Virus record (IMG/VR): IMGVR_UViG_3300045988_092951
Strand: one strand, 5' to 3'
From: a virus
Length of the DNA stretch: 34,883 nucleotides
Positions 1,941-3,217 of the stretch are shown piece after piece; position 1 is the first letter of the stretch; every line of letters starts with the position of its first letter. A model generated the notes under the pieces. That model worked only from the letters and a program-made list of their open reading frames with translations. It was not told the origin of the DNA and did no database searches. The translations under genes were made by a program, and so were the position numbers.

Positions 1941-2339
1941 CTATTGACCATCGAACATTGCATTAATATTCATTGGTGGCATTACTATTGGTTCTATTCC
2001 TGGTTGTGAAGTTATCAATGTGAGTTCACTCCTCAAATAAGGGAATAAAATAGACACGGTATTTTTATTCATTATTGATTCTCTTAACAAATCATTACTG
2101 CATTCCAAACTGAAATTTCCACAAAGTTCAATAATTATATGAAAATCAGAATCGTTCATTGACGTAACTGTTAGTTTTAATTTAGTGCAAAAAACTGATT
2201 CATCAGATGTTTCAACTTCTTTTTTTAAGTTGAAATTCAACTCATCAATAGGGCACTCATTTGGATTTACATATTCAACTTGTGTAAATTTAATACTTAA
2301 TGATTTTAAGATACTGTGCTGTTTCTGCGAAAGTTCCAT
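1941..2339 (-). CDS. SecB-like chaperone (132 aa), third gene of the cassette
   Basis: AGGAGG RBS 7 nt upstream. TVSILFPYLRSELTLITSQPGIEPIVMPPMNINAMF aligns with E. coli SecB [36 protein letters not shown] (recalled from memory). The upstream blocks also align: LKLTVTS with LRVTVTA, and FHIIIELCGNFSL with FLCEVQQAGIFSI. Confidence 0.8.
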   Translation of the reverse strand: MELSQKQHSILKSLSIKFTQVEYVNPNECPIDELNFNLKKEVETSDESVFCTKLKLTVTSMNDSDFHIIIELCGNFSLECSNDLLRESIMNKNTVSILFPYLRSELTLITSQPGIEPIVMPPMNINAMFDGQ

Positions 2340-2355
2340 ATAATCCTCCTATAAT

Positions 2356-2550
2356 CTATGAAGCCAATAATTCAGTTGAATCGTCTACTAAATAGTATTC
2401 GTCAAATAATTCCATAGCGGTTAGAAACAAAACATCATTCTTGATGCAACCGCTCTTATCAATTACACAACCACCTCGACCTTTGCATACTTCAGAGTAA
2501 CCAATACCATTAAGTTCGGCAATAGATTTTATCATTTCTTTACTTATCAT
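2356..2550 (-). CDS. 64-aa protein, middle gene of the cassette (candidate antitoxin/adaptor)
   Basis: GGAGGG RBS inside the 3' end of the upstream gene, and an ATGA start/stop overlap at 2547-2550. The C-terminus is acidic, aromatic and hydrophobic: VLFLTAMELFDEYYLVDDSTELLAS. Confidence 0.7.
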   Translation of the reverse strand: MISKEMIKSIAELNGIGYSEVCKGRGGCVIDKSGCIKNDVLFLTAMELFDEYYLVDDSTELLAS

Positions 2551-3140
2551 ATATAACCCTCCATACTAAAATCTGCAGCAAGACGTAAGTTTTCAATTAT
2601 ACTCTTATCATACACACATATTTGAGTTTCTATGCCAGACATTAAAAGAAAATTAGTTTTGTGATTAGACGAAAATTGCATATCCATACAAAATGAACAC
2701 ATAATACCTGCAATTTGAAATTGATTTGCGAAAGAATCAAATGTAAAACATCTCTTTCTTTTGGTAACTTGAATACTAAAGTCTTTTGAATTTCTATTCA
2801 ATCCTTTTGTAAAATCTAGACATATTCCATCGCTTTTTATCATTTTGTCCAAATCAAGGGCAAACTTTTTAAACTTTCTCAGATGTGCTGAATCTTCAAG
2901 ATTGTATAACTTCTCTTTATTCATGTCAGCCACAACAACGTCATAATTTGTTTTATACTTTTTACTTTTACTTACTGCCCATCGTTTGGCTTCTTCATAG
3001 CAAGGATAAAAATATATTCCGTGACCAAGCCAATGATCATCACTATCTCTGCGCTTCGGATCCATAAATCCATTGTCAACTATGTCAAAAGCCCATTCTT
3101 TCAATGTACCATGAAATACATTTATATAATTAAATTTCAA
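2547..3140 (-). CDS. PARP-like (H-Y-E class) ADP-ribosyltransferase-fold protein, 197 aa (candidate toxin/effector)
   Basis: TTG start with a GGTGA RBS. Three motifs are present: VFHGT (H10), GHGIYFY (Y43) and ETQICVYD (E171). They resemble PARP1 HGS, GKGIYFA and NEYIVYD. The H-to-Y spacing is 33 aa, against 34 aa in PARP1. Confidence 0.65.
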   Translation of the reverse strand: MKFNYINVFHGTLKEWAFDIVDNGFMDPKRRDSDDHWLGHGIYFYPCYEEAKRWAVSKSKKYKTNYDVVVADMNKEKLYNLEDSAHLRKFKKFALDLDKMIKSDGICLDFTKGLNRNSKDFSIQVTKRKRCFTFDSFANQFQIAGIMCSFCMDMQFSSNHKTNFLLMSGIETQICVYDKSIIENLRLAADFSMEGYI

Positions 3141-3188
3141 AAAATCACCTTGCTTTTAAGCAGACTGTATAACTCTAAAACTAATTAT

Positions 3189-3217
3189 ATTATATCATGC
3201 TTGTCAAGTACTATCAA
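3189..3217 (-). promoter_or_regulatory. Sigma-A-type promoter of the three-gene cassette
   Basis: On the minus strand: TTGATA (3212-3217), 17-nt spacer, TGaTATAAT (-10 at 3189-3194). Confidence 0.7.

Follow-up and report, generated by a model that had tools for sequence, protein, structure and literature searches.

Introduction

The anti-phage system CmdTAC (PD-T4-9) is composed of an ADP-ribosyltransferase (ART) toxin, a small antitoxin and a SecB-like chaperone (PMC9519451, 2022; PMC11618068, 2024). Here we describe a three-gene operon at positions 1941-3217 of a viral DNA of 34,883 nucleotides (nt; IMG/VR record IMGVR_UViG_3300045988_092951), the whole of which we call the window. Its genes A, B and C probably form a divergent member of the CmdTAC family. 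A temperate phage of Ruminococcus bicirculans, which belongs to the Oscillospiraceae of the human gut, would carry them at its right end as an accessory set expressed in the lysogen.

The target of CmdT is mRNA, where it blocks translation by ADP-ribosylating the adenine N6 of GA dinucleotides; its published active-site motif is H-Y-[E/D/Q], and the Y41A substitution abolishes defence (PMC11618068). CmdA aids the folding of CmdT and neutralises it, while CmdC stabilises CmdA and is displaced by phage T4's major capsid protein. CmdA ends in LAA, and its ClpP-dependent proteolysis (ClpXP) frees CmdT, so that the infection is aborted (PMC11618068). In the E. coli systems the proteins assemble as a T:A:C4 complex, and the toxicity of CmdT together with CmdA is relieved by CmdC. 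An independent study of a second CmdTAC, from E. coli O112ab:H26, reached the same conclusions, with both E. coli CmdT proteins targeting mRNA; both systems are prophage-borne, and that of ECOR22 lies in a hypervariable region of a P2-like phage (bioRxiv 10.1101/2024.02.24.581848). To recognise homologues, the discoverers asked for a CmdT homologue, any second open reading frame (ORF) and a SecB-like third gene, and no similarity of the antitoxin was needed because it is “widely variable” and often unannotated (PMC9519451, PMC11618068). Homologues were stated in the original paper to exist in Gram-positive species.

An earlier note on the window (the original prediction) had read the operon as a module of toxin, small protein and SecB-like chaperone, had been aware of no described system that pairs an ART with such a chaperone, or of one on a phage, and had proposed a candidate module with a new toxin class. 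The profile matches and the conserved synteny reported below bear out the module. The novelty does not survive, since the pairing is that of CmdTAC (PMC9519451, PMC11618068) and both studied E. coli systems are carried by prophages (bioRxiv 10.1101/2024.02.24.581848). There is thus no new toxin class and no new architecture here, and the value of the locus lies in its annotation and in the natural variation of its antitoxin and active site.

Gene A and the ADP-ribosyltransferase fold

Word-index homology searches returned almost only near-identical copies (3 matches for A, 1 for B and 7 for C), and the gene A family opened up only in a full HMMER scan of 1.8 billion representative proteins, which yielded 193 relatives, mostly 170-230 amino acids (aa) long. 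We aligned 133 of the 193 to count conserved positions and found that H10, G39, G41 and Y43 are invariant, while G11, T12, W37, L38, F44, Q173 and C175 are conserved in at least 90% of the sequences, C175 being kept in 131. The original prediction had proposed an H-Y-E set of catalytic residues. Its His and Tyr are the invariant H10 and Y43, but its third member, E171, is Glu in just 81 of the 133 relatives and is Arg in E. coli CmdT. Judging from the alignment, Q173 is the better candidate for the third active-site position because it is Gln in 125 of the 133 as well as in CmdT and fits the published H-Y-[E/D/Q] motif. E171 lies two residues upstream on the predicted strand 170-176 and would therefore face the same side. 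Gene A thus contains the H-Y-[E/D/Q] residues, including the Tyr equivalent to Y41 of CmdT.

The family profile aligns H10 and Y43 to the catalytic His/Tyr region of PARP10, PARP16 and exotoxin A. In a Foldseek search with the AlphaFold2 model of gene A (predicted local distance difference test, pLDDT, 93.7), all top PDB matches were the ART domains of PARP1/2, with a probability of ~1. Against viral models, the named top matches were ART-type phage proteins (ART-PolyVal-like and PolyVal ART), and the majority of the remaining top matches were unnamed. The PADLOC model PD-T4-9_A (PDLC04068) matches gene A at 2.5e-7 and is also matched by 108 of the 133 aligned relatives. As read from the sequence, gene A consists of the catalytic domain only and has no N-terminal hydrophobic signal, receptor-binding or translocation domain. 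Together, these results support the assignment of gene A to the His-Tyr clade of ARTs, in line with its earlier description as ART-like. It shares the His...Tyr NAD-binding core with PARP10, PARP16 and exotoxin A, and differs from the catalytic domains of PARPs and of exotoxin A/diphtheria-toxin ARTs in having Gln rather than Glu at the third position, in lacking accessory domains and in TM-scores of only ~0.45.

The SecB-like chaperone and the small protein

Gene C is a SecB-fold protein. The Pfam SecB model matches it at 9.7e-11 (42.2 bits, above the cut-off of 26) and PADLOC PD-T4-9_C at 2.2e-13. A profile built from gene C and its relatives aligned over the full length with the SecB proteins of H. 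influenzae and E. coli in the PDB (2.1e-7), and the AlphaFold model (pLDDT 84.8), with four strands and a long helix, superimposes on SecB with a TMq of 0.76-0.79 (0.79 for 1OZB), so that the proposed alignment along the length of SecB was found in both profile and fold. Gene C therefore resembles housekeeping SecB of E. coli and H. influenzae in fold and full-length profile alignment; it differs in lying within a candidate toxin operon and not in a secB housekeeping context, and in missing all NCBIfam SecB equivalog cut-offs (TIGR00809 among the models), with scores of 19-36 bits against cut-offs of 103-277; the best score is 36.4 bits against 102.8, and the other models reach 19-36 bits against 143-277. 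We rejected its identity as a housekeeping SecB since every one of these cut-offs is missed by far. The model also matches the M. tuberculosis toxin-antitoxin-chaperone (TAC) protein Rv1957 (5MTW) with a TMq of 0.62-0.68.

Gene B is an acidic protein with an isoelectric point (pI) of 4.4, close to the 4.6 of CmdA, and has no family match in Pfam, PADLOC or NCBIfam. It contains an N-terminal I..IAE.NGI helix followed by GxGGxVID (GRGGCVID), carries the aromatic residues F42, F49, Y52 and Y53 in its tail and ends in LLAS. The small ORFs found between A and C relatives form a loose family of their own that has the N-terminal motif in common, with an I..IAE.YGI helix and G.GGF[IV][IV]D, a variable aromatic-rich middle and a short aliphatic C-terminus. 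Gene B has 4 aromatic residues in its last 30 aa, and its relatives have a median of 5. At 61 loci, the small ORFs end in AC (27), AA (23), VA (7), GA (1), AS (1), AV (1) or PY (1); the AA and VA endings resemble described ClpXP degrons. The LLAS ending of gene B is found in the window and in all six cassette loci that we fetched (L001-L006), and its closest relative, at a locus whose gene C is 65% identical, ends in LMAA. The PADLOC model PD-T4-9_B matches neither gene B nor any of 22 position-equivalent proteins.

Two apparent likenesses of gene B were set aside. A Pfam match to Delta ctenitoxin (E 0.028) is noise from Cys spacing, rejected because those Cys are not conserved in the gene B relatives. 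A likeness between the C-termini of gene B and CmdA (“DD.TEL.LA”) is anecdotal and is not used as evidence.

Comparison with the E. coli CmdTAC locus

For direct comparison, a cloning primer from the literature was used as the query in complete genomes of E. coli and led us to a cmdTAC locus. In a P2-like prophage, this locus is flanked by the DinI-like gene on one side and the portal gene on the other, and it encodes CmdT of 192 aa, CmdA of 77 aa (ending in DLAA) and CmdC of 129 aa. The narrow PADLOC models match these three proteins at 4e-97, 3e-38 and 7e-61, respectively, and the broad models, which are those matching window genes A and C, match CmdT at 1.4e-20 and CmdC at 7.5e-13. Gene C thus fits the broad model as well as CmdC does. 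For the toxin, the gene A family profile aligns to E. coli CmdT with an hhalign probability of 94.6% (E 7e-8). Pairwise alignment places Y43 of gene A on Y41 of CmdT, within a common WL-x-x-G-x-YF motif (WLGHGIYF in gene A, WLTQGYYF in CmdT), and pairs ETQICVYD with RQQMCVYE in a second segment, where both proteins have Q-x-C-V-Y (QMCVY in CmdT). Between the toxin and chaperone genes stands a second, small ORF, gene B. With a CmdT-homologous gene A, a small ORF and a SecB-like gene C, the locus is a CmdTAC homologue by the discoverers' rule.

The likeness extends to the order and size of the genes (a toxin of the ART type with ~190 aa, followed by an antitoxin that is small and acidic and by a chaperone of ~130 aa resembling SecB), to their translational coupling and to their carriage by a prophage in a variable accessory locus, in addition to the His, the Tyr (Y41 in CmdT, Y43 here), the Q-x-C-V strand and the matches to the PADLOC A and C models. 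The locus differs from CmdTAC in its host, which is a Gram-positive gut anaerobe, and in its carrier, which has an integrase, a CI-like repressor and a GH25-LysM endolysin and is not P2-like. The cassette here lies between the lysin gene and the attachment site. The antitoxin differs as well, being unrelated in sequence to CmdA, shorter and without the terminal LAA.

Several of these points weigh against placing the locus in the CmdTAC family. The Pfam PARP model (PF00644) covers only residues 6-87 of gene A and scores 21.0 bits (E 2.7e-4), below its gathering cut-off of 26.7, and the TM-scores to the PARPs are modest (TMq 0.41-0.46, E ~2e-3). Gene A is only 25% identical to CmdT over 80 residues (pairwise E 0.014), and gene C can be aligned with CmdC over 36 residues only, around the FP[YF]LRS helix. 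No homology between gene B and CmdA was detectable by BLAST or by hhalign (probability 0.4%), and gene B ends in LLAS instead of the LAA/AA degron that is functionally required in E. coli CmdA. At 64 aa, it is also short compared with the CmdA proteins of 77 and 121 aa, which leaves only ~30 residues for a chaperone-addiction tail.

Other described systems share some features with the locus. The classical TAC systems, HigB1-HigA1-SecB^TA (Rv1955-Rv1957), MqsRAC, HigBAC and HicAB-SecB, are similar in that the gene C model resembles Rv1957, but they combine an RNase as toxin (HigB, MqsR or HicA) with a helix-turn-helix antitoxin that bears a chaperone-addiction domain (ChAD), whereas the toxin here is an ART and gene B has no recognisable DNA-binding domain. 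Neither A nor B matched such toxins or antitoxins in Pfam, NCBIfam or PADLOC. Like DarTG, the locus is a prophage-associated candidate for toxin-antitoxin defence with an ART toxin that would act on nucleic acid. The substrate of DarT, however, is single-stranded DNA, and DarG, a macrodomain antitoxin, removes the modification enzymatically, while no macrodomain is present here and the antitoxin would act through protein binding and a chaperone. We rejected a DarTG identity because no PADLOC or Pfam model of DarT or DarG matches A or B, and DarT was absent from the sequence searches; among the viral structural matches of gene A it appeared once, weakly (rank 25, E 1.5e-2).

Conservation of the gene order

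The gene order was surveyed in GTDB with one genome per species. The gene A profile confirmed 183 relatives, and the best 80 loci were examined. Nearly all of these 80 belong to Bacillota (Lachnospiraceae, other Clostridia, Staphylococcus, Streptococcus mitis, Paenibacillus and Oceanobacillus). In 62 of the 80, the gene A relative is followed ~250-350 nt downstream by an ORF for a SecB-like protein in the same orientation. Among viral contigs of IMG/VR, 75 contain a gene A relative, and 65 of them have a SecB-like gene 100-700 nt downstream. Viewed from the other end of the operon, every one of the divergent gene C homologues (33-44% identity) has a small gene and an ART-like gene ahead of it. 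The survey of homologues suggested by the original prediction therefore returned the three-gene synteny in both collections. The window's endolysin was found beside none and its integrase beside 2 of the 80 GTDB homologues in a neighbour test that detects only relatives of these two proteins, indicating that the wider family is not tied to this phage context.

Two departures from the common arrangement were noticed. In the closest divergent homologue of the cassette (L007:1580-3208, also L008, L009 and L010; gene C 65% identical), an IS110-family transposase gene of 400 aa on the opposite strand separates the antitoxin gene from the SecB-like gene, and several samples yielded contigs with this insertion. 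The toxin-antitoxin pair should thereby be cut off from its chaperone, and harm would be expected to follow if the toxin is active and C is no longer expressed. In an IMG/VR contig (L154:1855-3362), a gene A-like ORF of ~345 codons runs directly into the SecB-like gene, which suggests either a toxin-antitoxin fusion or a frameshift joining both genes.

Position at the prophage end and host

The operon stretch has a GC content of 30.6%, compared with 45.0% for the whole window, and 1941-3217 is the GC minimum among all 1277-nt segments (mean 44.9%, standard deviation 4.3%); the AT-richness that had been estimated by eye is thus confirmed by computation. Two integrated prophages (L002 and L003) are homologous to the window up to 3549 and continue into host DNA there, which makes the cassette and its 409-nt upstream region the last DNA before the prophage end (the attP/attR boundary). 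Accessory genes expressed in the lysogen classically occupy this position. As had been described, the operon has the lysis genes on one side and the integrase gene on the other. Its place at the prophage end, in the lowest-GC stretch, supports the proposal that the cassette is a horizontally acquired gene set.

An identical cassette is found beside the GH25-LysM endolysin gene in no fewer than two different phage backbones, whose lysis regions are of the holin_4_1 type and of the XkdX type, respectively. The block of endolysin and cassette (1052-3549) is shared at 90-95% identity between the backbones of L001/L005 and L002/L003/L004/L006, which have different modules for holin and tail. Both backbones contribute to the window, where 3-618 and 32828-34883 match one of them and 28054-33028 the other in a mosaic.

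The exact proteins are present in GenBank under Ruminococcus bicirculans (Oscillospiraceae) as MCQ4878269 (A), MCQ4878268 (B) and MCQ4878267 (C), and an RNase R in the host flank is labelled Ruminococcus sp. GenBank names A and B “hypothetical” and C “protein-export chaperone SecB”, so that the module is under-annotated. Exact copies of B and C each occur on at least 1000 contigs and those of A on 376. DNA matches in phage databases were to unannotated human-faecal virome contigs only.

Proposed mechanism and alternative explanations

By analogy with the E. coli systems, from which the toxicity, neutralisation, protease, trigger, target and defence function considered here are borrowed, the locus might act as follows. 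In the lysogen, a promoter belonging to the operon would drive its transcription, in the direction opposite to that of the late genes. B would bind and neutralise toxin A and may also aid its folding, while a tetramer of C would hold the aromatic-rich C-terminal tail of B and thereby shield B from proteolysis. Upon infection by a second phage, an abundant, newly made structural protein would compete for C, leading to the degradation of B and the release of A. With NAD+, A would then ADP-ribosylate nucleic acid, most likely single-stranded mRNA, which would block translation and abort the infection.

If the locus works in this way, mRNA ADP-ribosylation under the control of a capsid-sensing chaperone would extend to temperate phages of an abundant human-gut anaerobe. 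The locus also provides natural variation for the study of chaperone addiction and degrons, since its antitoxin is unrelated and shorter and ends in LLAS, and its toxin has Gln at the third position. In addition, it raises the question of how a phage-borne sensor of structural proteins avoids firing on its own carrier.

In a bolder interpretation, CmdTAC-like systems would have a separate branch, carried by phages of Gram-positive hosts, with this locus as its founding example. The branch would combine an antitoxin family unrelated to CmdA, a gene B that has lost the Ala-Ala degron, so that release would take place through a different protease or by a non-proteolytic route, and an H-Y-Q toxin with an extra upstream Glu that modifies something other than mRNA GA sites. 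We think it unlikely that all of these hold jointly. If they did, the chaperone would have to ignore the structural proteins of its own phage during induction.

The same TAC architecture might instead serve mainly in addiction or stabilisation, with death as the fate of cells from which the prophage or its right end has been lost. Toxin-antitoxin logic permits such post-segregational killing, the attachment site is next to the cassette at the very end of the prophage, and the occurrence of the endolysin-cassette block in at least two backbones is as expected of a selfish mobile block. We nevertheless find a mainly addictive role improbable, because both characterised family members act in abortive-infection defence and an integrated prophage is not lost by segregation as a plasmid is. 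The two roles are not mutually exclusive, and the same biochemistry is compatible with both.

A second alternative accepts gene A as a CmdT-like ART in a TAC-like operon and gives it another route of killing, through modification of DNA as by DarT, of structured RNA or tRNA, or of protein. Related families with the ART fold are known to differ in their targets (PMC11618068), gene A is only remotely related to CmdT and more basic (pI 8.4 versus 6.2), and its third-position Gln is accompanied by the Glu two residues upstream that E. coli CmdT lacks. Against these differences stand the His, the Tyr in WL-x-x-G-x-YF and the Q-x-C-V that gene A and CmdT have in common, together with the mRNA target found independently for two E. 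coli CmdT proteins, and we give another substrate a low probability.

It is very unlikely that gene A is an effector of the phage itself, whether one that takes over the host or counters its defences, as with Alt, ModA and ModB of T4, or a toxin exported with the help of C: although phages encode ARTs, the viral structure search returned many phage ART-like proteins and the toxin genes of converting phages often lie beside attP, as does the diphtheria toxin gene in the lysogenic conversion that the exported version would represent, the operon runs opposite to the late genes with its own candidate promoter, gene A lacks the signal, receptor-binding and translocation segments, gene C falls below all housekeeping SecB equivalog cut-offs, Bacillota, to our knowledge, generally lack SecB and the SecB-dependent export route, and both the synteny and the PD-T4-9 matches point to a TAC system. 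The CmdTAC-like system thus remains the preferred explanation of the operon.

Operon layout and expression signals

The features of the operon and its surroundings are listed in Table 1.

Table 1 Features of the cassette and neighbouring genes in the window.
Feature	Position	Strand	Description	Basis
Gene A	2547-3140	-	197 aa, TTG start 3140-3138; candidate CmdT-like ADP-ribosyltransferase toxin	ORF
Gene B	2356-2550	-	64 aa; acidic protein, candidate antitoxin	ORF
Gene C	1941-2339	-	132 aa, ATG 2339-2337; SecB-like chaperone, TAC type (CmdC-like)	ORF
Ribosome-binding site AAGGTGA	3145-3151	-	4 nt (3144-3141) upstream of gene A TTG	Sequence reading
Ribosome-binding site AGGAGG	2345-2350	-	In the B-C gap	Sequence reading
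Candidate promoter TTGATA-17-TATAAT	3189-3217	-	Extended -10 TG	Consensus scan
Strong hairpin	1889-1928		Shared terminator candidate between the convergent endolysin gene and gene C	Terminator scan, RNA fold
Low-GC island	1929-3549		31.5% GC; cassette and 409-nt upstream region (3141-3549)	GC values, homology boundary
GH25-LysM endolysin	1066-1881		Convergent with gene C	
Tyrosine integrase	3602-4777			
Zinc ribbon and TM2 membrane protein	4954-5346	-	130 aa	Pfam TM2 4.9e-14
CI-like HTH-S24 repressor	5500-6165			
Two ORFs	6770-7225, 7287-7859	-	Opposite to surrounding + strand genes	No significant Pfam match

The three minus-strand genes are coupled as tightly as had been predicted. The stop codon of gene A overlaps the start codon of gene B in ATGA at 2547-2550, and only 16 nt, with AGGAGG inside, separate the gene B stop (2358-2356) from the gene C ATG. 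The signals proposed for the two ends of the operon were confirmed in part. The promoter candidate matches 11 of 12 consensus positions and has the TG of an extended -10 element; however, promoter-like sites in the AT-rich stretch number 10 as against 8.9 expected from shuffled sequences, which makes the promoter plausible rather than demonstrated. The hairpin at which the operon was thought to end is real (-22.1 kcal/mol when folded on the minus strand, z = -6.3), but in the terminator scan it is terminator-like on the plus strand only, the operon strand having no good U tract.

An imperfect palindrome at 3201-3234, with directly adjoining 17-nt arms that are 76% complementary, has its centre at the -35 element of the promoter candidate. 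We considered it as an autoregulatory operator and found it too weak in AT-rich DNA to call. Further upstream, where non-coding DNA separates the candidate promoter from the end of the prophage, an inverted repeat at 3428-3489 has 15-nt arms that are 87% complementary and lie 32 nt apart (TGCTTGTGAAACACG / CGTGGTTTACAAGCA); it could be a binding site for a recombination protein or a regulatory element. An Rfam search of 1700-3800 at a permissive threshold returned nothing credible.

Attachment site and neighbouring regions

The attachment site has no tRNA or tmRNA gene, whether in the window or in the copies that are integrated. L001, L002 and L003 have the first 50-60 bp of the host flank in common, including a GC-rich hairpin GGGTGCAGGGGCACGCCCCTG, and the outer flanks differ: L001 and L002 carry genes for a beta-lactamase-family peptidase and DUF389, and L003 has a two-component system. 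A perfect hairpin of 11-12 bp is located at 3557-3584, just downstream of the integrase gene.

Other stretches of low GC content are at 6001-8000 (0.33-0.36), 19501-20000 (0.37) and 24001-25000 (0.39-0.40), in the early region and within the structural region; further acquired genes may be present in the two minus-strand ORFs of this early part (6770-7225 and 7287-7859). The zinc ribbon/TM2 gene, between the integrase and the CI-like repressor genes, occupies a typical accessory-gene position, where L004 carries a 527-aa T5orf172/MUG113 protein, indicating a second variable locus. In L001, beyond the host genes for the beta-lactamase-family peptidase and DUF389, the block at 1-5800 contains small genes together with AAA_23 and AAA_24 ATPase genes and looks like a second mobile element or a defence island adjoining the prophage.

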